DNA of 64,000 nt from Gemmatimonadaceae bacterium (GTDB taxonomy: Bacteria; Gemmatimonadota; Gemmatimonadetes; Gemmatimonadales; Gemmatimonadaceae): the NCBI GenBank assembly GCA_051859245.1, contig JBHYGA010000001.1, forward strand, positions 800,001 through 864,000. The letters run 5' to 3'. The notes beneath the pieces were generated by a model. It had not been told where the DNA came from. It saw only the letters and a list, made by a program, of their open reading frames with translations, and ran no database searches. The position numbers and the translations under genes are program-made. Shown here one piece after another: positions 37,428-51,610 of the stretch (positions are counted from its first letter, which is position 1; each line of letters starts with the position of its first letter).

Positions 37428-38531
37428 ATGACCGATACGCTGACGCTCCGCCGCACTTCGCTTTTCGACGCCCACGTCTCACTTGGCGCGCGCATCGTGC
37501 CGTTTGCTGGATGGGAGATGCCCGTGCAGTACCCGGCCGGTATTTCTGCCGAGCACAAAGCCGTGCGTGAAGCGTGCGGATTGTTTGATGTGAGTCATAT
37601 GGGTGAGGTGATTGTGAGTGGTCCCGACGCGATGGCGTTCGTGAATCACGTCACCAGCAACGATGTGGCGGCGCTCGCTGTGGGCCAGATCCAGTACAGC
37701 ACCTTGCTGACCGAGCGCGGCACGATCGTTGATGATCTGCTCGTGTATCGATATCCCGATCATCTGTTTCTGGTGATCAACGCCGGCAATCGCGATGCGG
37801 ATATCGCGCATTTGCGCGCGCACATTGGCGCGTTCGATTGCACCATGGAAGACGTGTCGGATTCGTACGCACTGCTGGCGGTGCAGGGGCCCAATGCGCC
37901 GGCGATCGTGCAGCGTTTCACGAGCACACCACTCGGTGAGATGAAGTACTACCGGTTTGCCGACGGCGAAGTGGCCGGCGTGCCGGCGATTATTTCGCGC
38001 ACGGGTTACACCGGTGAGTTGGGTTTTGAACTCTACGTGCCGTGGGAGCAGGCGCGCACTGTGTGGGATGCGCTGATGGCCACGGGCGAGGTCACGCCGT
38101 GCGGACTTGGCGCGCGCGATACGCTGCGTCTTGAAGCCGGCATGGCGTTGTACGGCCATGAACTCAACATTGACACCACACCACTCGAAGCCGGACTCGC
38201 GTGGCTGGTGAAGCTCGGCAAGACCGATTTTCTCGGCAAGGATGTGCTCGTGCATCAGCACACCGATGGGTTGGATCGCAAGCTTGTTGGCTTCACGTTT
38301 GACGAGCGCGCGATTCCGCGCAGCGGGATGCCGGTGTGGTACGGCGACCTCCCGTCAGGCACTGTGTGCAGTGGCACCATGAGTCCCACGCTTGGGATGC
38401 CGATTGGCACCTGTTATTTGCCGGCCGCCGCTGCGGTTGAAGGAACCGTGTTTGCGGTGGACATTCGCGGCAAGCATGTACCGGCGCGCGTGGTGCCACT
38501 GCCATTCTACAAGCGGGCGGGCAAGGCGTGA
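37428..38531 (+). CDS. gcvT: Glycine cleavage system aminomethyltransferase T
   Basis: [37 protein letters not shown]. Confidence 0.97.
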
Positions 38532-40174
38532 GTCGAAGTACCTCGCGTGCGTCGCGCGTAACAGGCGACGGCGTTCCCCTGGGCAGTGTGGCCATTCTGC
38601 TCACCGACGTGGAACCGGCGGTGCGTTTGAACGCCGTGCTCGAAGCACGCGGTGTGCAGGTCACGCTCATCTCGCCACTCGATGATGTGCGCGGCACGCT
38701 GCGTCGCGCGCGTCCCTCGGTGCTGGTGCTCACCGGTGCATTGCTTGACGGTGCGAACGTGGCCCTGGTGCAGGAACAGCTGTGGCACGACGTGAGTGTC
38801 ATGGGACTCACCGATGCGGTCAACGACGAGTTGCTCGACAAGTTGCGCGCGGTGGGCTACGCCGAGCTTGTGTCGAAGCCCGTGGTGGTGGAGGAGCTGG
38901 CCGACAGTGTGCAGCGCCGCCTGGAGCGTCGTGCACTGGCCGATGTCACCGGTCTGGTGGGAGAATCGGAAGCGATTCGCGAAGTGCTCGTGAAAATCGA
39001 ACAGATCGCGCCGGTCACGAGCACCGTGCTCATTGAAGGTGAGAGCGGCACGGGCAAGGAACTCGTGGCGCGTGCGATCCACCGGTTGGGTTCACGTCGC
39101 AGCAAGCCGTTCATTGCGGTGAATGTTGGTGCGTTGCCGGAAACGCTGCTGGAGAGTGAACTCTTTGGCCACGAGAAGGGCTCGTTCACAGGTGCGGCCG
39201 AACGTCGGCTGGGTCGTTTTGAGCTGGCTGACACCGGCACGTTGTTTCTTGATGAGATCGGCGAAGTGCCGAGCAGCACGCAGGTGAAGTTGTTGCGCGT
39301 GCTCGAAGAGCGAGAGGTCACGCGTGTTGGAGGTGGACAGCCGATTGCGGTAGACGTGCGTGTAGTAGCGGCTACGAATCGTCCGCTGCGTGAGCACGTG
39401 GAGGAAGGCGCGTTTCGCGCGGACCTGTACTATCGCTTGAACGTGCTGCGCATTTATCTGCCGCCGCTGCGCGAGCGTCGTGAGGACATTCCGGTGCTGG
39501 TGCGCCGGTTCGTGCGCGAGTTCAGCGCGCTGCACGATCGTCCGTTTCACGGCATCTCGGGCGACGCGCTGGCGCTGCTGGTTTCGTATCCGTGGCCGGG
39601 CAATGTGCGTGAGCTGCGCAACCTTGTGGAGAGCATGGTCGTGCTGGCGCCGGGGCACGAAATCGGCGCGGATGACATTCCGCGGGCGATTCGTGACGCG
39701 GGTGGTCGGCGACTGTTACCGGTGCCCGTTGGCCCTGTGGTGCGCGAGGGTGAACGTGCGCAGGGGCGCGAGCTGGAGTTCATTGTGCGCTCGCTTGTGG
39801 AGCTGAAGTTACAGGTCGAGGAACTTCGTCGTCGAATGGATGTCGAGGTGCGCTCTCCCAGTGTGGGTTGGATGGGCGAAGTGCATCCGGTCGCAGGGCT
39901 GGCTGCGTCTCCGGTAGGTGACGTGTGGGTGGGAAGTGGGGTGATGGGCGGAATTCCGCCGCGTGACCAGGCAACGCCACCGAGCAGCATTTCGGTTGGT
40001 CCGGAAACCACGATGGCGGAAATCGAGCGTCAGGCGATCGAGGCCATGTTGCGTCAAACGGGTGGAAACCGCCGAAAGGCGGCAGATTTGCTCGGGATTG
40101 GGGAGCGGACGCTGTATCGAAAACTCCGGGAATATCAGGGAGACGGCATTCCGCCGGATCTCGACGTCACGTGA
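38528..40174 (+). CDS. Sigma54-dependent enhancer-binding protein with degenerate receiver
   Basis: GESGTGKE, GSFTGA, WPGNVREL, Fis HTH. Receiver-like N-terminus has no phospho-acceptor Asp. Confidence 0.92.
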   Translation: MSRSTSRASRVTGDGVPLGSVAILLTDVEPAVRLNAVLEARGVQVTLISPLDDVRGTLRRARPSVLVLTGALLDGANVALVQEQLWHDVSVMGLTDAVNDELLDKLRAVGYAELVSKPVVVEELADSVQRRLERRALADVTGLVGESEAIREVLVKIEQIAPVTSTVLIEGESGTGKELVARAIHRLGSRRSKPFIAVNVGALPETLLESELFGHEKGSFTGAAERRLGRFELADTGTLFLDEIGEVPSSTQVKLLRVLEEREVTRVGGGQPIAVDVRVVAATNRPLREHVEEGAFRADLYYRLNVLRIYLPPLRERREDIPVLVRRFVREFSALHDRPFHGISGDALALLVSYPWPGNVRELRNLVESMVVLAPGHEIGADDIPRAIRDAGGRRLLPVPVGPVVREGERAQGRELEFIVRSLVELKLQVEELRRRMDVEVRSPSVGWMGEVHPVAGLAASPVGDVWVGSGVMGGIPPRDQATPPSSISVGPETTMAEIERQAIEAMLRQTGGNRRKAADLLGIGERTLYRKLREYQGDGIPPDLDVT

Positions 40175-40350
40175 GGTTTGGGGGGATACGTCCATGTGTT
40201 ACAAGATCTTGGACGATTCCCACTATTGCTCAAACGTGACTTTCCCCACATATTGGCCCCGTCGTCAAGCGACCCCTGCTGTTTCGCAGATGGTCGTGCC
40301 GGCGGGATTCTTCCTTCGTTCGATATTCGGGGAGCAGACCGCAGGCTTAT

Positions 40351-41352
40351 GTGGACCGCACTCCGGAGACCGATCTGTCCATTCCAGCGAATCTGGGCCT
40401 TCCCTTGACGTCGAGCGGCAATCCCAGCCTTGGGCAGTCGGGCACGATCGCGGGCAGTGTATTGCCGCTTCGTCGGGCAGAGGAGTTGATCGTCACGTTA
40501 CCGGGGGTCCTGAGTGTACGGATCGTGCCGAACGAGACGGGAGCGATCGACGAAGTCCACGTGCTGACCACAGATGCGGTTCCCCCAAAGAACACCGTTC
40601 GCAATATCGAAAGCGCGCTGATGGCGCAGCTCGGGTTGCGGGTGAATCATCGAAAGATTTCGGTCGCGACCACGCTGGACGCGCCTCGGGCGTCGGATCA
40701 GGCGTCGGAGCGGGTGGTCGAACGTTCGGCCGACCGAGTGGCCTCGCGTCAGCCCGAGACCACGTATATGCCGCCTGGCAGCGCGCCGCTGGCGGGAGCG
40801 CCGCTGGCAGGGGCGCCGCTGGCGAGTGCGCCGGTTGGCAGCTCGCCGATGGGCGATGCGCCTCTGCGAGAAGCCCCGGCCATGCGCAACGCACCGATGC
40901 GCGCCGGTTCTCGGCTGTCGGAAGCGACGCAGGCGTTAGCTGCCGCCGAAGGGCGCCGGGTGCTGATCTTCGAGGATGTGGAAGTTCGCCGGTCGCGTTC
41001 CAAGGGTGTGCTGTGCCGCGTGACGCTGAGCCGCGAGCAGTCGCACTACGTGGGCGAGTCGGAAGGACAGGAATCAGAGCGCAGCCGGGTGGAGTTGGCG
41101 GCGCGTGCGGCATTGTCAGCGATTTCACAGGCGGCCTCGGCCTCCGCGGGCGGGGAGCGCTCGGTGGCGCTCGAGGGGGCCAAGCTGATGGACGCGTTCG
41201 ACCGCGAGTTTGTGTTTGTGAGTGTGACCGCTCGCATCGGTCGCGAAATGGTGGTGCTGACCGGGAGCTGCGAGGTACGCGAGAGCGCCGAAACATCGGC
41301 GGTGCTGGCCGTACTGGACGCGACGAATCGTTGGCTGCATTTGGAGCGCTGA
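40351..41352 (+). CDS. Two-domain hypothetical protein with low-complexity linker
   Basis: 333-aa ORF with host-like codons. N-domain IDEVHVL...PKNTVRNIESAL...ISVA, APLAG-repeat linker, alpha/beta C-domain ending AVLDATNRW. Start uncertain. Confidence 0.8.
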   Translation: MDRTPETDLSIPANLGLPLTSSGNPSLGQSGTIAGSVLPLRRAEELIVTLPGVLSVRIVPNETGAIDEVHVLTTDAVPPKNTVRNIESALMAQLGLRVNHRKISVATTLDAPRASDQASERVVERSADRVASRQPETTYMPPGSAPLAGAPLAGAPLASAPVGSSPMGDAPLREAPAMRNAPMRAGSRLSEATQALAAAEGRRVLIFEDVEVRRSRSKGVLCRVTLSREQSHYVGESEGQESERSRVELAARAALSAISQAASASAGGERSVALEGAKLMDAFDREFVFVSVTARIGREMVVLTGSCEVRESAETSAVLAVLDATNRWLHLER

Positions 41353-41381
41353 TCAGGGACTCGTCTCGTGATCAGCTTTTT
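41348..41381 (+). terminator. Intrinsic terminator
   Basis: GCTGATCA...TGATCAGC stem followed by TTTTT, overlapping the stop codon of 40351..41352. Confidence 0.75.
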
Positions 41382-41550
41382 ATTCCTTCCTTCCCATTTG
41401 TCTAACGACAACCTCAAAAACGTCCCCCGTCGCCCAGTAGAGCGGAGCTGAGCGGGCAGGCCATCAGGTAGTTGAGCGGAGCCAACCTAGCACCAGCATG
41501 CGGAGACCATCGGTCCTGCGTGACTACGCATACAGGGAGGTGACGTTGCA

Positions 41551-41622
41551 ATGGAATTCATGGCCCAGCTCGTGAGTGCTATGTGGTCGTTCGTTTTGGC
41601 CGACGCGAAGACCTGGTCTTGA
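41551..41622 (+). CDS. 23-aa small peptide MEFMAQLVSAMWSFVLADAKTWS (not in the ORF track)
   Basis: SD GGAGGTGA at 41536-41543, 7 nt before ATG. Hydrophobic core followed by ADAKTWS and TGA. Ends 44 nt before the HD-GYP gene. Confidence 0.75.
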   Translation: MEFMAQLVSAMWSFVLADAKTWS

Positions 41623-41666
41623 TCCTGATCTGACGCGGTGGGGGACTCCTTTTCTTAATCATCGAA

Positions 41667-42989
41667 ATGCCGCCGAGAGTACTTGCGTACGTCTACGTAG
41701 TCGCTGCGACAGCCATTATGGCTGCCGCGGCGCTTTGGCGTCGCGATCCCTCGTTGAACTTCGATTATTTGCTTGGCTCTTTGGGGCTTGTCGTCCTTGG
41801 AGCGTACACCGCAGTCGCCAAGTACAAGACTAGCCGGAGTGCAGATGGTGAGGTGTCGTTCATTCCTTACCTAACGGCGATCATGATCTATCCGAATTGG
41901 TCCACAATCGGGTTGATTGGAGTCGCAGTCGGTGCAACCGAGCTGTCGAAGAAGAAACACTTTGTTAAGCGCCTCTTTAACACTTCACAGTTTCTTCTAG
42001 CGTCCTCTACGGCGATGTTTGTCTACCTCGGTTTGGGAGGTGTTCCGCTCGCCGAGGATAGTAGCTTCAAAATGTTCGCGCATACGGGAGGCGTGGTTTC
42101 ATTCCTCCTTGTCAACTCCTTCGCGGTTGCTGCGGTAATCGCGATCGCTGAGAAGAAGAATGTGTTTCGTCTCTTCTTCGACGCGAACCGCTCGTCATTT
42201 CTGTACGATCTGTTTGCTATTCCTGGTGTTTACGGAGTCGCGCGCGCGTTCACCGACTGGAGCTGGTGGGGGTTGCTCGTCACGGTGGCTTTGCTTTATG
42301 GCGTTCGGCTGATGTATCAGGCAAAGTTGCAGCTAGAGAATACCAACAGGGAGCTTCTTGAGCTCTTCGTGCACACCGTTGAATTCCGAGATCCTTACAC
42401 TTCAGGCCACTCGCAGCGAGTGGCTCGGATATCGAAGATCATCGCGCGCGCAATAGGCCTGCCAAATCGAGAAGTGGAACGCATCGGGAAAGCTGCACTG
42501 CTTCACGACGTTGGGAAGATCCACGAGATTTTTGCACCGATTCTTAGCAAACCCGGTAAGCTTACGCCGGAAGAGCGCGCGATCATGGAGTTGCATCCAG
42601 TGAAGTCGGCCGAACTCGTTTCAAAGCTGAGCGACTTCAACAACATCATTGACGACGTTCGGCATCATCACGAGAACTTCGACGGAACTGGGTACCCAGA
42701 CCGGCTCGTTGGGAAGTCCATTCCGCTCGGATCGCGGATCATCATGTTCGCAGATACGATCGATGCGATGACCACCGATCGACCGTACAGAAAGGCACTC
42801 GGCCCTGAGGCGGTTAAGGCCGAGTTGGTTCGGTGCCGGGGGCAGCAGTTTGACCCGGACATTTGTGATGCCCTCCTTGCGAGCAACGACTACCATCTGC
42901 TTTTCGGTGGCGTCGAGGGAGTTTCCGTTCCGTCGCTGACGCAGATCCTTGATCGCGTCCGAAAGTCGCGAACGCCAGCCACAGTGTAG
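41667..42989 (+). CDS. Membrane-integral HD-GYP cyclic-dinucleotide phosphodiesterase
   Basis: About 7 TM N-terminal region. HSQRVA, HDVGK, HHENFDGTGYP, ADTIDAMTTDRPYRKAL, QFDP are all intact. Confidence 0.93.
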   Translation: MPPRVLAYVYVVAATAIMAAAALWRRDPSLNFDYLLGSLGLVVLGAYTAVAKYKTSRSADGEVSFIPYLTAIMIYPNWSTIGLIGVAVGATELSKKKHFVKRLFNTSQFLLASSTAMFVYLGLGGVPLAEDSSFKMFAHTGGVVSFLLVNSFAVAAVIAIAEKKNVFRLFFDANRSSFLYDLFAIPGVYGVARAFTDWSWWGLLVTVALLYGVRLMYQAKLQLENTNRELLELFVHTVEFRDPYTSGHSQRVARISKIIARAIGLPNREVERIGKAALLHDVGKIHEIFAPILSKPGKLTPEERAIMELHPVKSAELVSKLSDFNNIIDDVRHHHENFDGTGYPDRLVGKSIPLGSRIIMFADTIDAMTTDRPYRKALGPEAVKAELVRCRGQQFDPDICDALLASNDYHLLFGGVEGVSVPSLTQILDRVRKSRTPATV

Positions 42990-43010
42990 CAACGTTGGTT
43001 CCTCTGAGCA

Positions 43011-46000
43011 CTACTTCTGCGGTCTAGTGCGCAACGATACGGTCGCTGCGTTCGCGATTTCGAGGAGCTCGTGTTGAAGTACATCGAATACGAAGCCGGG
43101 TTGCGAAAGCTCCCTGCGGTCCACTCCGAAGTAGCGGGCGCAAAGCTCACGAGCGAGCTCCAACTTGCCCGACTCGTGAAGCTTCTGCATCACCGAGGCC
43201 GCTAGGAAGTCCTGTCCTGAATACCTACCGTAGGACGTCAGGTAGTGCGTCGCCCGCTCCAACAGAGCCTGGAATGTGGTCGCGTCTGCCACCACGTCTT
43301 CAGCATGAAGACAGAGAGCTGTACAGTATAGGGTCAGCCTCGTTGGCTTCGTCAACCCAGCGGTTGCGAATGCCAGAGCCTCCTGTGACGAAACTAGCTT
43401 CCCGAATGACAGATGTTCGAGTCGAAGGTTAAACAGTCGAACCCAAGTCTCGCCCTCATGCTCCGGAAGCTGTCCGTGCAGAGCAAATGATCTGCCTAAG
43501 TCGATTGCTCGTCCTCGATCGGCTCCTTCGAAGGCTATGACGGTTTTGCGCCACAAAATGTCTAGTAGCCTCGATGAGCTTTCCTGCACTTGTTGAGATT
43601 TCTCCGCTGTGTTTAGGCAGTCCATCGCGCTGACAACGTCACCGCAGACTCGATGCACAAGCGAGGCGTTGTTGAGTAGTCGAAGCCCCGAAAGGGTCTG
43701 CGCATGTAACTCGCGATCCTTGTGAACCGCAACCGCGAGTTTATTGGCTGACTGCAAATCTCCGAAAATTGTGTTGAACTGCATCATTGGCTCGATGACG
43801 TCTTCTTCCTTCACAACACCCGTACGATGCGTCTCGGCCAACATTGAATACGCCCGAAGTCCAATATCTGCCTCGAAGAGATCCGAGGCAGCTGTCAATG
43901 CGACGCGAATGGCACGGATTTGAGTGACGCCATCTCCTTCCGCTCCGGCAGCGATGTCTAATGCTGCGAGTGCGCTCTCCCGACCTGTGCGCTGTAAGTC
44001 TGTGTGTACTGAGGCTTCGATCTGTGACAGTTTCTGCGCAATCGACAGTTGCGTAGCGCCTTCACCATTGCCCAGAAGTTTGTCAGTCGCTCGAGCGACG
44101 AGCCGCCAACTGAAAGCACGTTCTGCAGAAACGACCATTGCATTTAGTATGCTTGTTCGCGCTGAAGCTTCGGAACAGAGATTCAACGCTGACTCCAAAA
44201 ATCTTAGGATGCCGTCGCCCATTCCCGAGTTTGAGAGCCGGTCTGAGTGTTCTAGGCACATGCTCACGAACAAGCTTGCGTCCCCGGATTCCAAAGCAAG
44301 CGATAAGGATCGAAAGGCGTCCTCTACTGAAAATATCGTTCGCAGTCTATTGCTCAGCTGAGTGGCGAGGTCGCGACGGAGCATCTGTAGCTCTGTACTG
44401 GTGAGCTCTGAATGGACAACTCGACGCACTTCGTCGTGACAGGAAATTTCCCCGGCCGCTCCCTCGTGAAGAAGTCCAGCGTTCATCAAGGCTCGAATCG
44501 CCTTGAGGCGATTGGCCAAACCAAACCCAAATGAATCGTCTAGGTCCATTGAGGTGGCTTTTCCGCCGAGGACCGCGGCGACCGCGACCATGAACCTTTC
44601 TTCAGGCTGCAGTCGGCGAATCTGACGAGCAAGAGTCGCCGCGAGAGAGGCGCTCGACCCGCCAGTGAGGCCCGTAACCAGATGTTCGCGGGCTAGTGCG
44701 ATTACGCTCAGCGGAGTGCTGTCGCTGGATACGGCGATGAGAGTGGCCGATTTCGAATCGAGGCGCCGACCTGTCGGCGTAGAAACAAGTGATGCGATCT
44801 CAACACATGCCTTGTGCGACAATTTTTGCAGAAGCACTGTGGTCTGATGACCGTCTTGCGAATCCCCCTCACGTTCTCCAGCCTGATCTTCTCGTTTCGT
44901 AAATACAAAAAGCAGTCGCTCGTGTTGAAATAGATCGAGCATCTCCAGAATGACTTCCGAGGAGTGCACATCCGCTCGCTGCAGATCGTCGATAAGCACT
45001 ATTAGCGGCGTTTCCTCGGCGATCGCAGCTATGAGCTCATACAAGCATTCGTGAAGGGGAGTCTTCGAGTTGGCAAGCCAAGGCGATTCACCTGGGGGAA
45101 GTTCGACTTCTGAGCCTGCGCACTTGCGAAGGACAGTTAACGCCTCTGGAGTGCATCCGAGGGCGCCTGGGAGTCGGAGAAGGCTGCGCACCAAATGCGC
45201 AAGAGTTCCGAACTTCACCGTACTGTCAAAATGAGACACCCTCACCAAACACCGCGCGAACCCAAGTATCATCGCACGACGCGTCACCTCGTACGCCAAC
45301 TCGGTCTTGCCAATGCCCGCCGGGCCGAGCAATCGCACGATGCGCGGTTCGCCTTGCATGGCGGATAGTGTGAGTGCGTCGAGCTTCTGCAATTCGGCAT
45401 CGCGACCAACAAGTCGCGGCGTGGCGGCTTCGTCGTGCGATAAGCGCACGGCGCGTTCGATGCGCTGCTGCGCCTTCTCGACACGACGGCCAAGATCCGT
45501 GCCGCCCACGCCCGTCTCGCGCACGTATGACTCCAGCAACGACGATGCGTTGACTCGACTCCCAAGCATGGCCACCGCTTCGGCCACGATCAACGTGGCG
45601 TCTTCGTTGAAGGGGTCAAACTCCAGCACGGTACGCGCCCAGCGCTCAGCTTCCTCCCACTCACCGCGATCGCGAAGGCGGCGCAACTCCGGCACAAGAA
45701 TGCGACGCACGTCAGCGTGATAGAGCTCGCGCTGCTGCTCCACCCAACGGCGCAGCGCAGAATAGCTCGGCAGCCAACCGGCGAACAGATGACCAAAGGG
45801 CTCCTGACCTTTGAGCACATCACGGTCGAACAACAGTGCCGTTCGATCCAGCGCAAAGCACGGCAGAAACGTGGTGCGCAGCATTCGCACCGACGCGCGG
45901 CTGCTTTCAATCTCCACGCCGAGTTGACGCAGCTTGTACACGTGCTGACGCAGCGAGTGACGCGCCGATGCATCGTCCATGCCTGGCCACACGAGTTCCA

Positions 46001-46268
46001 TCAGGCTCTCGCGGGCGATCACGTGCTCATGCGACATGCCCACCACCACGAGCAGCGAAAACATGCGCTCGGCGCCCGGCGCGATGACGCCACCACCGCC
46101 AATGTGAATCTCCGCCGTGCCGAGCGTGCGAAAGAGCACCTGCCCGCGTTCAAGCGCGGGCAGCGGCAGCGGTTCAGGCGCGTAGAAGGATTCCAGAGGC
46201 ATCTCATCCAGGGCGAGCGCCGAAGCGGTCGAAATCATTGGCTTCTCCAGGTGGCGGGTAGACGTCAT
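43011..46268 (-). CDS. SARP/BTAD + STAND-type AAA ATPase transcriptional regulator
   Basis: RESLMELVWP..ARHSLRQ wHTH, BTAD (LEFDPFNE), LVGRDAEL, Walker A GPAGIGKT, Walker B IVLIDDLQ, helical C-terminus. Confidence 0.85.
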   Translation of the reverse strand: MTSTRHLEKPMISTASALALDEMPLESFYAPEPLPLPALERGQVLFRTLGTAEIHIGGGGVIAPGAERMFSLLVVVGMSHEHVIARESLMELVWPGMDDASARHSLRQHVYKLRQLGVEIESSRASVRMLRTTFLPCFALDRTALLFDRDVLKGQEPFGHLFAGWLPSYSALRRWVEQQRELYHADVRRILVPELRRLRDRGEWEEAERWARTVLEFDPFNEDATLIVAEAVAMLGSRVNASSLLESYVRETGVGGTDLGRRVEKAQQRIERAVRLSHDEAATPRLVGRDAELQKLDALTLSAMQGEPRIVRLLGPAGIGKTELAYEVTRRAMILGFARCLVRVSHFDSTVKFGTLAHLVRSLLRLPGALGCTPEALTVLRKCAGSEVELPPGESPWLANSKTPLHECLYELIAAIAEETPLIVLIDDLQRADVHSSEVILEMLDLFQHERLLFVFTKREDQAGEREGDSQDGHQTTVLLQKLSHKACVEIASLVSTPTGRRLDSKSATLIAVSSDSTPLSVIALAREHLVTGLTGGSSASLAATLARQIRRLQPEERFMVAVAAVLGGKATSMDLDDSFGFGLANRLKAIRALMNAGLLHEGAAGEISCHDEVRRVVHSELTSTELQMLRRDLATQLSNRLRTIFSVEDAFRSLSLALESGDASLFVSMCLEHSDRLSNSGMGDGILRFLESALNLCSEASARTSILNAMVVSAERAFSWRLVARATDKLLGNGEGATQLSIAQKLSQIEASVHTDLQRTGRESALAALDIAAGAEGDGVTQIRAIRVALTAASDLFEADIGLRAYSMLAETHRTGVVKEEDVIEPMMQFNTIFGDLQSANKLAVAVHKDRELHAQTLSGLRLLNNASLVHRVCGDVVSAMDCLNTAEKSQQVQESSSRLLDILWRKTVIAFEGADRGRAIDLGRSFALHGQLPEHEGETWVRLFNLRLEHLSFGKLVSSQEALAFATAGLTKPTRLTLYCTALCLHAEDVVADATTFQALLERATHYLTSYGRYSGQDFLAASVMQKLHESGKLELARELCARYFGVDRRELSQPGFVFDVLQHELLEIANAATVSLRTRPQK

Positions 46269-46365
46269 CCGGCCAATCTGGAAGCCCCCGTCACCGGAGC
46301 GTCATCTCATGGTGACGATAGCGCGCACACGCCACCCCCACGATGCCGCTCCGGGGCGAGACGCG

Positions 46366-47373
46366 CTACTTCACCGCATCCGGCAACCGCACAATGTCGT
46401 GGAACGCCGCATTGTCGGCTTCCGCCTGGAAGTTCAGCACCAACCGGTGCCGCAGCACGGCCGGCGCCACCGCGCGCACGTCTTCAAAATCCGGCGCCGC
46501 CCGGCCGTCCATTGCCGCCCGCGCCTTCGCGCCCAACACCAGGTACTGCGACGCGCGAGGACCCGCGCCCCACGACACGTATTTTTTCACGCCCGGGCCC
46601 GCCATTGGATCATCCGGACGCGTACTGCGCGCCACCATTACCGCGTACTGCACCACACTCGGCGGCGCCGGCAATCGGCGTACGAGATGCTGCAACGCCA
46701 GCAACTCTTCGGCACCGAGCACCGGCGTGATTTCCGGCGCTCGATCACCCGTTGTTGCGTGCACAATCTGTTCTTCTTCTTCGCGCGACGGATACCCGAG
46801 TCGCAGTTCAAACATGAAACGATCCAGCTGCGCTTCAGGCAGCGGATACGTGCCTTCCTGTTCAATCGGGTTCTGTGTGGCCAATACAAAAAACGGTGAC
46901 GGCAACGAATACGTGTGACCAGCAACCGTCACCGTGCGTTCCTGCATGGCTTGCAACAACGCGGCCTGCGTTTTGGGTGGGGCTCGATTGATTTCGTCGG
47001 CCAGCACAACCTGTCCGAAAATCGGTCCTTTCACAAAACGAAACGTGCGATGTCCGGTGGCCGCATCTTCTTCCATCAACTCGGTGCCGGTGATGTCACT
47101 CGGCATGAGATCCGGTGTGAACTGCACGCGCGAAAATGACAATGCGAGTGCTTGCGACACGGTCTGCACTAACAACGTTTTGGCGAGACCCGGCACACCC
47201 ACCAACACCGCGTGTCCACCCGCCAACAATGCCGCGACGAGATCGTCAACAATCTGCGCCTGTCCAACAATGCGTCGCGCGATTTGTGCACGCAGTTGTG
47301 TGCGCGCTTCGGCGAGACGGCCGAGCAACGCAATGTCGTCATTCACGAGCGGCGGAGAACTCTGAGAGGGCAT
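46366..47373 (-). CDS. MoxR family AAA+ ATPase
   Basis: [51 protein letters not shown]. Confidence 0.95.
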
Positions 47374-48277: not shown

Positions 48278-48553
48278 ATGGTGGACATTGAGCGGCCGTC
48301 GTCCCCGAAGTCGGACCCGGAAATCAGTCCCTGGTCGCTGGCGGGTTTGGGGATTCAGTTCGCGGTCGCGCTGGTGTTCTTCGGCTACGCCGGGCAGTGG
48401 CTCGACCAGCGGCTCAACTCCGCGCCGGCATTTCTTTTGATCGGTGTGATGCTGGGCGCGGGCGGCACGTTCTACCTGAGCTATCGGAACCTTACGGCCC
48501 CGAAGCGGAGAGAGCAGCCGCCCGATGATCCGCCGGACGGAGCAGGATCGTGA
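48278..48553 (+). CDS. AtpZ/AtpI family protein
   Basis: GLGIQFA...GYAGQWLD...P.FLLIGVMLG two-TM pattern, first gene of the atp operon. Confidence 0.85.
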   Translation: MVDIERPSSPKSDPEISPWSLAGLGIQFAVALVFFGYAGQWLDQRLNSAPAFLLIGVMLGAGGTFYLSYRNLTAPKRREQPPDDPPDGAGS

Positions 48554-48951
48554 GTGCAAGCAGTTCGGCGAACAATGCGGCAGGTAGATCGGGCGCGGGG
48601 CTGGTGCGCGCCATTGCACTCTTCGCGGCCGCGCAGTTGGTGGTGCTCGGACTGGTTGGTGCGGCGCTCGGTTGGTTCTTCAGAGTGCCTGGTGATCGAA
48701 CGGCCATTATCACGGCCGCGTGGGTCGCGCTGGGTGTGCAGTTGCTCACCCTCGCGATTGTGAAGCTGGCAGGACGTGATCAGGTGATCGCGGCGTGGGG
48801 CCTTGGTGTGCTGGTGCGATTCGCTGTGGTGGCGCTGTGGGGCTTTCTGGTGGTACCCGCGCTTGGTTTGGCGGCGACGCCGGCGTTAATCGCACTGGTT
48901 TCGTTTTTCTTCGTCTCGACCGTGGTCGAGCCGCTATTCCTGAACATTTGA
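48550..48951 (+). CDS. ATP synthase I-like 4-TM membrane protein
   Basis: Four hydrophobic segments, position before atpB. Confidence 0.7.
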   Translation: MSASSSANNAAGRSGAGLVRAIALFAAAQLVVLGLVGAALGWFFRVPGDRTAIITAAWVALGVQLLTLAIVKLAGRDQVIAAWGLGVLVRFAVVALWGFLVVPALGLAATPALIALVSFFFVSTVVEPLFLNI

Positions 48952-48965
48952 CCCCGATCTCCGGG

Positions 48966-49925
48966 ATGCTACGTCGCTTTCTTTGCGCATTGCTGCTGCT
49001 CGCGCCGCTGAGTCTCGCCGCGCAGGAGCCAACTGCCACCGCCCCTGCCGCTGAGCAGGCTGCTGGTGATTCGCATTCGTCGTCGGGGCCGGTGGATTTC
49101 ATCACGCCGCACATCACCGACGCATCGTACCTCGAGCTCCCGTACTGGAAAGCGCCGTTTCACACGTATGTGGAACTGCCCAAGATCCCGCCGGTGCACA
49201 TCGGTCCGCTGACCATCGACTTCTCGCCCACCAAGCACGTCGTCATGATGCTGGTCGCGGCCACGATTCTTTCGCTGGTGCTGATCATTGCGGCCAACGC
49301 GAGCAAGCGTGATCACGCTACCGAAGGTCGAAGCAAGGGCTTTGGCGGCGCGATTGAAGCGCTGGCGCTGTACCTGCGCAACGAAGTAGTGCTGCCCAAT
49401 GTGGGTCATCACGGCGAGAAGTACGTGCCGTTTGCGCTCACGTTGTTCTTCTTCATTCTGTTCATGAACCTGCTCGGGATGATTCCGTTTGGCGCCACCG
49501 CCACCGGCAACATCTCCGTGACGGCCACGCTCGCGATCATCACGTTCATCATGGTGGAAGCGGCCGGCATTCGCGCCAACGGTGCAGGCTATCTGAGCAC
49601 GATGTTCTACTGGAACAATGATCTGCCGGCGGCCATGCGCCCACTCATGTTTCTGATCATGAGCCCGGTGGAAATGCTCGGCAAGCTCACCAAGCCGTTC
49701 GCGCTCGCGATCCGTTTGTTTGCGAACATGACGGCTGGACACATCGTGCTGCTGGCGCTTATCGGCCTGGTGTTCTCCTTCCAGAGCTGGTTGCTCACAC
49801 CACTGCCGTTGTTTATGGCGCTGGCGATTTCCGTACTTGAGTTGTTCGTGGCGTTTTTGCAGGCGTTCATTTTCACGCTGCTCGCCAGCGTGTTCATCGG
49901 ACAGATCCGCGAAGCGCACCATTAA
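48966..49925 (+). CDS. atpB: F0 ATP synthase subunit a
   Basis: NLLGMIP, TATGNI, KPFALAIRLFANMTAGH (essential Arg), LQAFIF. Start set at ATG 48966. Confidence 0.96.
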   Translation: MLRRFLCALLLLAPLSLAAQEPTATAPAAEQAAGDSHSSSGPVDFITPHITDASYLELPYWKAPFHTYVELPKIPPVHIGPLTIDFSPTKHVVMMLVAATILSLVLIIAANASKRDHATEGRSKGFGGAIEALALYLRNEVVLPNVGHHGEKYVPFALTLFFFILFMNLLGMIPFGATATGNISVTATLAIITFIMVEAAGIRANGAGYLSTMFYWNNDLPAAMRPLMFLIMSPVEMLGKLTKPFALAIRLFANMTAGHIVLLALIGLVFSFQSWLLTPLPLFMALAISVLELFVAFLQAFIFTLLASVFIGQIREAHH

Positions 49926-49949
49926 TCCGTGTGTAGTTCAGCTGACTCG

Positions 49950-50052
49950 GTGCTCCCCGATTCAGTGATTCCGTACCCGATCGAGCGATCGGGGAATGTT
50001 CACGGAGCTTCGGCTCACCTGTGAACACCGTGTTTTCGAACACGTGGAGCAC
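49950..50052 (+). ncRNA. Candidate cis-acting multi-stem RNA between atpB and atpE
   Basis: Closing stem GTGCTCC/GGAGCAC around three hairpins, two capped by UUCG tetraloops. Confidence 0.6.
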
Positions 50053-50084
50053 GCATTCTCCAACTTTTCTTTCGAGAGTTTCTC

Positions 50085-50363
50085 ATGATTGAAGTGCTCG
50101 CGCTCCTGCAGGACACGATGGGTGGTTCGGATCCTCGCGGTCTCGTCGCCATTGGCGCCGGCATCGCTGCTGGTGGTGCCGTGATCGGCGCCGGCATGGG
50201 CATCGGCCGCATCGGTGGTTCAGCGGTGGAAGGCATGGCGCGTCAGCCGGAAGCGGCCGGTCGCATCCAGACGGCAGCGCTCATTCTTGCCGCCCTGATC
50301 GAAGGCGCCGCGCTGTTCGGCGTCGTGATCGGCTTCCAGCTCCAGGGCAAGATCACGTTCTAA
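50085..50363 (+). CDS. atpE: F0 ATP synthase subunit c (probably H+-coupled)
   Basis: GAGMGIG, RQPE loop, LIEGA. No Q...ES/T sodium signature. Confidence 0.97.
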   Translation: MIEVLALLQDTMGGSDPRGLVAIGAGIAAGGAVIGAGMGIGRIGGSAVEGMARQPEAAGRIQTAALILAALIEGAALFGVVIGFQLQGKITF

Positions 50364-50435
50364 CGTGATCCGGTGTCGGGGATGCGAATGCGTCCCCGAC
50401 CTGTGCACCCTTTCCTGAACCTACGGATCAGATTC

Positions 50436-51056
50436 ATGCGCCTCGCTTTGTCGCGCACTGCAGTGTTCGCCCGCAGCGCCGCCGTGCTTACGATGGCCAC
50501 ACTCATCCCCACCGCGTCAGCGTTCGCTGCGCCGGAAGGAGAAGGTGGACCCGTCAACCTGTTGGAGCCGAACGCCGGCCTGATGGTGTGGACGCTCGTC
50601 GTGTTCATCGGCCTGATGTGGGTGCTCAAGAAGTTTGCGTTCAAGCCGCTGTTCGCTGCGGTCGAAGAGCGCGAAAAGGCGCTCTCTGATGCCATCGAAG
50701 GCGCAAAGCGTGATCGTGATGCCGCCGCCGCACTGTTGGCCGAGCAGAAGGCGTTGCTCGACTCTGGTCGTGGTCAGGCGCAGCAGATCATTGCCGACGG
50801 TCGCGCGGTCGCTGACAAAATGCGCAACGACATGCTCGAAGAAACGCGCAAGCAGCAGAGCGAAATGCTCGAGCAGGCGCGTCGGGACATCGAAGCCGAA
50901 GCAGCCAAGGCCATTGCCGAACTGCGTCGCGAAGCGGTGGACCTCGCCATTGCCGGTGCCGGCAAGGTGATCGAGCAGAACCTCGACAGCGCGGGCAATC
51001 GCAAGATTGTCGAACAGTTTCTCGCGTCGATTGAAGCGCCCAAGGGTCGCCGCTGA
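50436..51056 (+). CDS. atpF: F0 ATP synthase subunit b
   Basis: WTLVVFIGLMWVLKKFAFKPL..EERE, coiled coil. Start uncertain. Confidence 0.93.
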   Translation: MRLALSRTAVFARSAAVLTMATLIPTASAFAAPEGEGGPVNLLEPNAGLMVWTLVVFIGLMWVLKKFAFKPLFAAVEEREKALSDAIEGAKRDRDAAAALLAEQKALLDSGRGQAQQIIADGRAVADKMRNDMLEETRKQQSEMLEQARRDIEAEAAKAIAELRREAVDLAIAGAGKVIEQNLDSAGNRKIVEQFLASIEAPKGRR

Positions 51057-51610
51057 TGAGTGTGCAAGGTTCGACCGCTGGTCGTAACTACGCCGAAGCG
51101 CTGCTGACGCTGGCGCGGAAAGCTGGTGATGCCGAGGGGTGGGGCAGGTTGGTGCGTCAGATCGGTGATGCGATCGATTCGGACATCAAACTGCGTCATT
51201 TCCTTGAATCACCGCGCATTACGGCCACGGAAAAAATGGGCGTGCTGGAAAAGGCGCTCGGTGATCGTGTTCCGCACGTGATGCTGCGCTGGTTGCAGGC
51301 CGTGGCCCGCAACCGTCGCCTCATGCTGCTGCCCACGATTGCCATTGAGTACGACACGCTGCTCGACGAATCTGCGAACCGTGTGCACGCCAAGCTCACC
51401 TTTGCCAGCGCACCGGCCGAGGGTGATGCGGACAGCATTGCGTCGCGTCTTTCGGCCGTGCTCGGCAAGACGGTGGTACCGCACGTGAACATCGATCCGG
51501 CTGTGATGGGCGGCGTGGTGATTCGCGTGGGTGATACGATCATGGACGGCTCGGTGCGTCGTCGCATGCAGGTGATGCGTCGTCGGATGTCGGGATTGTC
51601 CGGACGGTAA
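51056..51610 (+). CDS. atpH: F1 ATP synthase subunit delta
   Basis: NYAEAL, IDPAVMGGVVIRVGDTIMDGS. Confidence 0.95.
   Translation: MSVQGSTAGRNYAEALLTLARKAGDAEGWGRLVRQIGDAIDSDIKLRHFLESPRITATEKMGVLEKALGDRVPHVMLRWLQAVARNRRLMLLPTIAIEYDTLLDESANRVHAKLTFASAPAEGDADSIASRLSAVLGKTVVPHVNIDPAVMGGVVIRVGDTIMDGSVRRRMQVMRRRMSGLSGR

Follow-up and report, generated by a model that had tools for sequence, protein, structure and literature searches.

In the coat–replicase ('Min Jou') interaction of phage MS2, translation of an upstream cistron melts a long-range helix that masks the next start site, and bacterial leader open reading frames (ORFs) are known from mgtL, tnaC, and pyrL. Small membrane proteins that join or modulate larger membrane sensors or complexes form another group, which includes the MgrB–PhoQ and SafA–PhoQ pairs as well as KdpF, CydX, and AcrZ. 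In the peptide pheromone systems AgrD/AgrC and ComX/ComP, a small peptide gene lies next to the gene of a membrane sensor. Here, we describe a locus that shares features with each of these systems. It lies in a 64,000-nucleotide stretch of DNA from a Gemmatimonadaceae bacterium (GenBank assembly GCA_051859245.1, contig JBHYGA010000001.1, positions 800,001 to 864,000; the whole stretch is referred to below as the window). The locus consists of a small ORF (sORF) of 23 codons, a structured leader RNA in which the sORF is embedded, and, directly downstream, the gene of a predicted cyclic di-guanosine monophosphate (c-di-GMP) phosphodiesterase with a MASE9 sensor domain.

To our knowledge, MASE domains are common membrane sensor modules without known ligands, and Gemmatimonadota is a phylum with almost no experimentally studied regulation. 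The MASE9-HD-GYP architecture was described by Galperin and Chou (10.1101/2021.11.05.467447); according to the passages searched, one member has been studied and was poorly expressed, and MASE9 has eight predicted transmembrane (TM) spans, of which two are short, with periplasmic loops that are short and poorly conserved, no known ligand, and a proposed ligand-binding site within the membrane. The same passages make no mention of a small protein, a riboswitch, or Gemmatimonadota. In excerpts of a report on Clostridioides difficile (PMC13724677), riboswitch-regulated small membrane-associated proteins are described in c-di-GMP signaling. Among the passages retrieved from the literature on MASE9, HD-GYP, leader ORFs, c-di-GMP small proteins, and Gemmatimonadetes RNA, we found no description of the ORF or the leader presented here.

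The micro-gene and the phosphodiesterase gene behind it

The enzyme gene encodes a protein of 440 amino acids (aa) in which Pfam recognizes an HD_5 domain (E 1.5e-34) and, over profile positions 47–162 of 203, a MASE9 domain (PF20972; 27.0 bits against a cut-off of 24.3), which is also carried by many of its relatives. A hydropathy scan gave about six clear hydrophobic spans and a weaker region. An alignment of 16 sequences shows no variation in the HD, HHE, and GYP motifs (H280-D281, H333-H335/E336, and G342-Y343-P344), and the protein is a predicted HD-GYP phosphodiesterase with its catalytic motifs intact. The first-pass annotation of the window, which had seen here a multi-TM protein fused to an intact HD-GYP domain, is borne out on this point.

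Relatives were gathered by an alignment-based scan with the enzyme, one genome per species, and the best 80 loci of 521 confirmed stretches were used; the best relatives of the window's proteins are Gemmatimonas and Gemmatimonadaceae sequences. The sORF was counted in 78 sources, namely the window and 77 of the loci, with three loci (L056, L073, and L074) excluded for too little upstream DNA. In the window, the sORF has a strong Shine–Dalgarno (SD) sequence, GGGAGGTGA, at 41535–41543, 7 nt ahead of its ATG, its 23-aa translation is MEFMAQLVSAMWSFVLADAKTWS, and its stop codon lies 44 nt before the enzyme ATG at 41667 (median 29 nt across the sources). The ORF, the SD, and the spacing had all been noted in the first-pass annotation, whose proposed check was whether ORFs of 20–30 aa, each with an SD and a Trp near the end, are conserved ahead of homologous TM-HD-GYP genes. 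The outcome of this check is clearly positive: with the window included, the motif G[GA]GGTGA followed by an ORF of 16–35 codons precedes the enzyme gene in 78/78 sources. Furthermore, tblastn with the 23-aa peptide alone returned 21 loci at E <= 1e-3, each match lying 30–53 nt before the enzyme gene.

The peptides resemble one another in hydrophobicity and at the C-terminus. Among the 77 distinct peptides, Trp is the second-last residue in 71 and the last in 3, with no terminal Trp in the other 3; an acidic residue lies at positions −8 to −3 in 66, and the C-terminus follows the pattern acidic-xxx-Trp-x. Hydropathy averages 0.91, while the two alternative forward frames give 0.02 and 0.05. 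In the clade of the window, the peptides have a stripe of small residues at every fourth position (Ala5, Ser/Asn9, Ser13, and Ala17). No signal or leader sequence was found in peptides of this length (16–35 aa).

The coding frame also leaves its mark on the pattern of substitution. Across 24 close relatives, in which every ORF has 23 codons, the ratio of nonsynonymous to synonymous change (pN/pS) was 0.51 in the sORF frame versus 0.70–1.52 in the remaining five frames. Trp22 is present in all 24, and Ala10, Ser13, Ala17, Asp18, and Gly23 are retained despite synonymous codon changes. Codons 5–8 (GCC CAG CTC GTG) are nearly without synonymous change, with CTC in 24/24, and part of the sORF is therefore also under constraint at the RNA level. 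An exact look-up of 10 such peptides in a collection of 15 billion proteins found none of them present, so the micro-gene is unannotated. By these comparative measures, the sORF is a genuine, conserved, unannotated coding gene directly upstream of the orthologous MASE9-HD-GYP gene across Gemmatimonadota.

The three loci without a terminal Trp are L046 (5743–5814), L052 (5900–5962), and L078 (5890–5958). L052 has Leu (TTG) at the position of the usual Trp (TGG), and the Trp of L078 lies six residues from the peptide end. The ORF of L046 looks unrelated and is followed by an unusually long spacer; decay of the copy or an error in assembly may account for it.

The gene order around the sORF is conserved as well and runs gcvT, sigma-54 activator, hypothetical gene, sORF, and phosphodiesterase, followed by the STAND and MoxR genes on the opposite strand; it recurs at enzyme identities from 72% to 41%. 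By tblastn, the hypothetical gene was matched in 59/80 loci, the 21 misses all having 411 nt or less of upstream DNA, while the sigma-54 activator was found in 51/80, gcvT in 40/80, and MoxR in 34/80. The STAND gene was matched in 64/80 loci but is absent at least from L040, L042, and L071 despite 6 kb of downstream DNA, and it is a looser neighbor. The conserved neighborhood expected in the first-pass annotation thus holds for the hypothetical gene and less strictly for the STAND gene. As both the sORF and the hypothetical gene upstream of it are conserved, the specific link between the peptide and the enzyme is real.

All 80 loci show the Gemmatimonadota-type arrangement, and among these best 80 of 521 the occurrence in other phyla that had been suggested in the first-pass annotation was not verified. 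Ten contigs bear other labels (Nitrospiraceae, Pyrinomonadaceae, Propylenella, two Acidobacteriaceae, two Chthoniobacterales, Gammaproteobacteria, Acidobacteriota, and 'unidentified'; the loci labeled as non-Gemmatimonadota are L028, L033, L043, L063, L064, L069, L070, L074, and L077). They are short contigs of metagenome-assembled genomes (MAGs) with the same synteny and with peptide types matching those of Gemmatimonadota loci, and they were probably mis-binned. Two MAGs have two locus-bearing contigs each (L064 with L069, and L063 with L070), the peptides of which are related, not identical; the doubled loci reflect either a mix of strains within the bins or a pair of paralogues in each genome.

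The leader RNA around the sORF

The whole spacer from the hypothetical gene to the enzyme gene is conserved in the alignments. When each sequence was folded as an ensemble and the pairs were projected onto the alignment, three recurrent helices emerged, and the sORF is, as judged from these folds and from covariation, embedded in a conserved RNA structure of ~230 nt composed of P1, helix A, and hairpin B (Table 1). P1 is a long-range helix that joins the 5′ end of the leader to a G-rich strand past the sORF stop and encloses ~210 nt, including the sORF. Helix A is a 12-nt irregular helix with two purine-rich 2 × 2 internal loops, and it sequesters the SD of the sORF.

Pairs were counted in 59 of the 78 sources, as 19 had less than 160 nt of upstream DNA or failed the C-run/G-run pattern (L013 and L079). 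Over the whole structure, 90.4% of cells were paired, compared with 38–51% when the partners were slid, and 170 cells were changed on both sides, compared with 18–48 when slid; the observed pairing values were reached by 0/500 shuffles. In P1, 7/11 pairs change on both sides. The P1 duplex averaged −28.3 kcal/mol for cognate strands versus −22.5 kcal/mol for non-cognate ones (5.8 better), and the cognate duplex was better than the mean of its row in 55/60 cases. Similarly, 6/8 pairs of hairpin B change on both sides, with 94.5% of cells paired and an AU<->GC exchange in 24 sequences. These results reveal helices with compensatory changes across relatives, the mark of a structured cis-regulatory RNA.

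Both initiation regions fall within these helices. All 78 sORFs have a strong SD (median anti-SD duplex energy −11.7 kcal/mol). In the window, no SD lies within 20 nt of the enzyme start, and in 47/78 sources the G-run of P1 is the only SD-like element of the enzyme gene. With the SD of the sORF in helix A and the SD-like G-run of the enzyme gene in P1, both initiation regions are therefore sequestered when the RNA is folded, one helix being nested in the other. The G-run starts at a median of 10 nt past the sORF stop (range 7–40) and is followed by a T-rich tract with 5.6 T per 12 nt, versus 2.3 expected, and 9.1 pyrimidines per 12 nt. An sORF that lies inside a covariation-supported RNA, which sequesters its own SD and clamps the region before the enzyme start, points to translational control and coupling.

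The remainder of the leader is marked more by invariance than by covariation: the blocks of the 5′ domain and the internal-loop positions of helix A are invariant in the alignments, and no covarying helices were found inside the 5′ domain. A tentative helix C of eight pairs, formed by the 5′ block and codons 4–8 of the sORF, was 78% paired versus 23–49% when slid, with just 17 double-change cells versus 3–16. The idea that the 5′ arm pairs more extensively with the sORF was considered and rejected, as the duplex energies were no better than those of shuffles (mean z −0.21; 2/59 below −2). CsrA-type GGA sites were likewise rejected, since the alignment shows GGA to be unconserved in both repeats and among the SD variants. 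A search of positions 40000–47000 on both strands against Rfam 15 gave 0 matches at E <= 1. One copy of the leader element was found, always at this locus, with no second copy in the window or in the 831,654 bases of the window and loci together.

Promoter scans gave little. A sigma-70 scan returned no promoter match before the leader, and the sigma-54 consensus matched the window 38 times, against a chance expectation of 39, with no match in the intergenic regions flanking the hypothetical gene. Immediately 5′ of P1, a small inverted repeat with an A-rich run after it is present in every clade (e.g., L007:5727–5760 and L038:5761–5800). In Gemmatimonas-type loci, the repeat is a stem of 6–7 bp with a 4-nt loop, and in the other loci it is a 12-nt palindrome. 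The repeat may serve as an operator or belong to the promoter or the transcript.

Flanking features and neighboring genes

Table 1. Coordinates of the features of the locus within the window.
Feature	Position	Strand	Description and basis
Sigma-54-dependent activator	38528..40174	+	AAA+ domain and Fis-type helix–turn–helix; Pfam Sigma54_activat E 7.5e-71, HTH_8; conserved neighbor
Hypothetical protein	40351..41352	+	Ferredoxin-like N-domain, disordered linker, C-domain of two beta-beta-beta-alpha units
Intrinsic-terminator-like hairpin and U-tract	41348..41384	+	After the hypothetical gene; hairpin 41348–41376, dG −15.8 kcal/mol, z −3.39
P1, 5′ strand	41422..41434	+	C-rich, pairs with 41634–41646; ensemble pair probabilities 0.3–0.87
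Conserved 5′ domain block	41439..41462	+	Near-invariant positions; may pair with sORF codons 4–8; alignments, minimum-free-energy fold of the window, weak pair count
Helix A, 5′ strand (anti-SD)	41476..41488	+	Nearly invariant; pair probability ~0.8; 93.9% of cells paired
Hairpin B	41495..41525	+	41495–41502 with 41517–41525; covarying stem of variable sequence that sits on the apex of helix A and ends in a tetraloop-like cap
Helix A, 3′ strand	41534..41546	+	SD region of the sORF (GGGAGGTGACG); motif in 78/78 sources; pairs with 41476–41488
sORF	41551..41622	+	23 codons, hydrophobic peptide, Trp second-last, unannotated; relatives, pN/pS, peptide statistics
P1, 3′ strand, and pyrimidine/U-rich tract	41634..41666	+	G-run 41634–41646; tract reaches the phosphodiesterase start codon
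MASE9-HD-GYP phosphodiesterase	41667..42989	+	440 aa; Pfam, motifs, initiation-region analysis
STAND-type regulator	43011..46268	−	AAA_16 E 9.6e-17 and weak winged helix; converges on the phosphodiesterase gene
MoxR-type AAA+ ATPase	46366..47373	−	AAA_3 E 3.1e-62; upstream of the STAND gene, co-oriented

The terminator that the first-pass annotation had placed before the sORF was recovered as a hairpin with CUUUUUAUU directly 3′ of it, and 0/200 shuffles folded as well; a simple terminator scan gave no match at this hairpin. The description of the gene upstream of it as a two-domain hypothetical also agrees with our results, since the AlphaFold2 model has two confident domains (predicted local distance difference test >85 at residues 40–110 and 200–330) separated by the disordered linker, the N-domain having the order alpha-beta-beta-alpha-beta. 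The protein has no Pfam match, its relatives are all unnamed hypotheticals, and as far as seen, it is restricted to Gemmatimonadota. For the C-domain, the best Foldseek matches in the Protein Data Bank were to LeuA and citramalate synthase, in the regulatory domains that bind leucine or isoleucine (E 8e-5 to 3e-3), with a target-normalized TM-score of 0.59 for 3f6g_B. A function as an RNA-binding protein was considered and rejected: the matches to double-stranded RNA-binding domains were weak (TM-score 0.13–0.15), and such a role is unsupported because the domains are not basic (isoelectric points 5.8–6.7) and the match to the LeuA regulatory domain is better. Neither fold nor Pfam gave any mark of a peptide-processing enzyme or exporter in this protein. 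The GTG at 40351 is probably too far upstream to be its start; the true start is probably a TTG at ~40405, as most homologues begin with MTS. We also observed that the micro-ORF is rich in codons for Leu, Val, Ile, Met, Phe, and Ala, and that the C-domain of the adjoining hypothetical protein resembles the amino-acid-binding LeuA domain.

Further upstream, the gcvT stop overlaps the GTG start of the sigma-54 activator gene by 4 nt (38528–38531). Downstream, the protein converging on the phosphodiesterase gene had been called a BTAD-STAND regulator. The STAND part of this assignment stands, whereas BTAD had no Pfam match at E <= 0.01, and an OmpR-type winged helix (Trans_reg_C) remained below its cut-off (22.3 vs. 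26.2 bits). The STAND gene lies 97 nt downstream of the MoxR gene on the same strand, a pair that recurs in related loci, and the two look like an operon rather than the usual MoxR-VWA pairing. The other genes within ~10 kb are housekeeping genes, encoding TrmFO/GidA-like, Usp, AAA_2 ATPase, ornithine carbamoyltransferase, AhpC/Bcp, GcvT, BsuPI inhibitor, and M1 peptidase proteins and the F0 and delta subunits of ATP synthase; the ATP synthase F0 operon at 48278–51610, which comes after the locus, comprises the genes of the a, c, b, and delta subunits together with the AtpI-like 'gene 1'. The DNA here belongs to the core chromosome and not to a mobile element. Among the 19 proteins between 30 and 54 kb of the window that were scanned with Pfam, none belonged to an export, processing, or modification type (AgrB-, ComQ-, ABC/C39-, or radical-SAM-type).

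Proposed mechanism, alternatives, and known systems

Could translation of the sORF serve as the switch for the phosphodiesterase gene? By default, both initiation regions would be masked. A cue, which could be a ligand, a protein, a small RNA, or temperature, would act on the invariant 5′ domain or on helix A and free the ribosome-binding site of the sORF. Ribosomes reaching the sORF stop would then unzip P1 and expose the start region of the phosphodiesterase gene, which is either SD-poor or dependent on the G-run; coupling would occur by unmasking, as in the coat–replicase interaction of phage MS2. Because P1 would be unzipped by translation of the sORF, the peptide and the enzyme would be made together. 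In the last and least certain step, the peptide would stay in the producing cell and associate with the membrane or with the MASE9 domain, as a small subunit or a modulator. Its hydrophobicity, the stripe of small residues, and the acidic-xxx-Trp-x C-terminus would suit a helix packed against a second one. From the comparative data, we infer that translation of the sORF and its coupling to the phosphodiesterase is the most probable reading, and we weakly favor an intracellular role of the peptide as a partner of the MASE9 domain. The reading as a whole, with the unzipping of P1 by sORF translation, the switching on of the phosphodiesterase, and a peptide that stays in the cell and is possibly a partner of MASE9, is in our estimate about as probable as all else together.

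Several observations weigh against this reading, most of them on the side of the peptide. Selection on the peptide is purifying but moderate, and some of its conservation, at codons 5–8, is at the RNA level. In the median peptide, the longest stretch free of charged or strongly polar residues covers 9 positions, and in no peptide does it exceed 17; the ~18–20 uninterrupted hydrophobic residues of a single-pass membrane protein are not found, so that the peptides are poor transmembrane candidates; some of them are only 16–17 aa long with a central Pro. The Trp keeps its distance to the stop codon and not to the N-terminus, which fits an effect at the level of the ribosome as well as it fits a binding epitope. 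On the RNA side, helix A is nearly invariant, with 3/9 pairs changing on both sides, and covariation cannot test it; its support is therefore thermodynamics and conservation. Moreover, in the clade of the window, the G-run lies 24–28 nt before the enzyme start and ~17 nt past the sORF stop, and part of P1 may stay paired when a ribosome terminates.

It is plausible, if rather less than probable, that the sORF is a purely cis-acting leader ORF, in which only the act of translation matters and the peptide is without a function once released, possibly with a pause at the end of the sORF, dependent on the nascent chain or the Trp codon, that holds P1 open. The enclosure of the sORF by P1 and the locking of its SD by helix A would be explained by this alone, as would the RNA-level constraint and the many peptides too short to span a membrane, and a most conserved residue fixed to the stop codon while the N-terminal length varies (16–35 aa) is typical of arrest or pausing peptides. 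However, simple coupling would not need Ala and Ser to be kept through synonymous changes, and hydrophobicity is kept in all clades, against an average of ~0 in the other frames. Furthermore, a single Trp codon makes a weak amino-acid sensor, and the stop codons are used evenly (TGA 30, TAG 25, and TAA 23), which argues against release-factor-specific arrest. An unlikely but more far-reaching possibility is a leader that works as a new RNA switch, responsive to a ligand or protein, and gates the synthesis of a micro-protein acting as an intramembrane co-sensor or as the first known MASE9 ligand; if true, a relay from RNA switch to micro-protein to c-di-GMP phosphodiesterase would be conserved across the phylum. 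In a variant of this possibility, with equal standing, the nascent peptide itself would respond to a small molecule inside the ribosome tunnel, much as TnaC or SpeFL does, and so set the phosphodiesterase output.

The enclosed element might also be a ligand-sensing riboswitch or a stand-alone dual-function small RNA, with P1 and the U-tract terminating or attenuating transcription, so that most transcripts would end before the phosphodiesterase gene and read-through would be the regulated step. Phosphodiesterase genes are classic targets of cyclic-dinucleotide riboswitches, the structured RNA closes its 5′ end onto its 3′ end, and invariant positions like those of aptamers or protein-binding sites occur in the 5′ domain and in the helix A internal loops. 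A T-rich tract directly follows the GC-rich P1, and in many loci an A-tract before P1 extends the pairing, yet 6 or more T per 12 nt were found in just 39/76 sources, and a terminator stem with an insert of ~200 nt would be atypical. With neither an Rfam family nor covarying helices found in the 5′ domain, and with one copy, always at this locus, we consider this alternative improbable. Still less probable is the model of the first-pass annotation, in which the peptide, or a processed Trp fragment, is exported and sensed from outside by MASE9 as a quorum or pheromone signal. The strict adjacency of peptide gene and membrane-sensor gene (78/78 sources), the near-terminal Trp, and a MASE9 domain without known ligand would accommodate it, but the MASE9 periplasmic loops are short and poorly conserved in the passages searched (10.1101/2021.11.05.467447). 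Moreover, the peptide has no signal or leader sequence, no gene of the export, processing, or modification types was found among the 19 scanned neighbors, the conserved upstream hypothetical has a fold like that of a regulatory domain and not of an enzyme or transporter, and the sORF sits within an SD-sequestering RNA. The likeness to AgrD/AgrC or ComX/ComP signals proposed in that annotation is not sustained, and a secreted pheromone is the least supported of the readings, unsupported by these data.

Returning to the coupled translation of sORF and phosphodiesterase, the system would unite a coupling device based on a leader ORF with a micro-protein as candidate partner; its conservation is well supported. 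A strictly co-inherited micro-protein would be a concrete candidate partner for a MASE domain, and the leader, with its embedded micro-gene, strong covariation, and lack of an Rfam match, provides a clean new case of nested SD sequestration. Standard annotation pipelines miss both the micro-gene and the RNA. The locus also advises caution: a peptide beside a receptor may owe part of its conservation to RNA structure and coupling, and adjacency alone is not proof of a ligand.

Like the MS2 interaction and the bacterial leader ORFs, the proposed mechanism involves a short ORF in a structured leader, nested SD sequestration, and upstream translation that would melt a masking helix. Unlike in those systems, the upstream ORF here is a micro-gene of 16–35 codons with conserved amino-acid properties, and the helix is formed between the very 5′ end of the leader and the spacer that separates the cistrons. 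With MgrB, SafA, KdpF, CydX, and AcrZ, the locus shares a very short hydrophobic peptide, missed by annotation, beside or in one operon with the gene of a multi-pass membrane protein; here, however, the candidate partner is the sensor domain (MASE9) of a c-di-GMP phosphodiesterase and not a kinase or transporter, and many of the peptides are too short for a full membrane span. As in AgrD/AgrC and ComX/ComP, a small peptide gene adjoins a membrane sensor gene, whereas here there is neither a processing or export gene nor a precursor leader, the output is a phosphodiesterase instead of a kinase, and the peptide gene lies within an RNA regulatory structure.

The published MASE9-HD-GYP proteins, as far as the passages searched describe them, have the same architecture as the enzyme here, with intact HD-GYP motifs and a proposed intramembrane ligand (10.1101/2021.11.05.467447). 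The nearest published parallel within c-di-GMP biology, going by the excerpts of the report on it, is the C. difficile system, where a structured 5′ RNA and a small protein, membrane-associated in that case, likewise occur together in a c-di-GMP network (PMC13724677). The C. difficile genes are stand-alone paralogues behind class I c-di-GMP riboswitches, with premature termination and control of sporulation, whereas the RNA described here matches no Rfam family and its micro-gene is co-cistronic with the phosphodiesterase.

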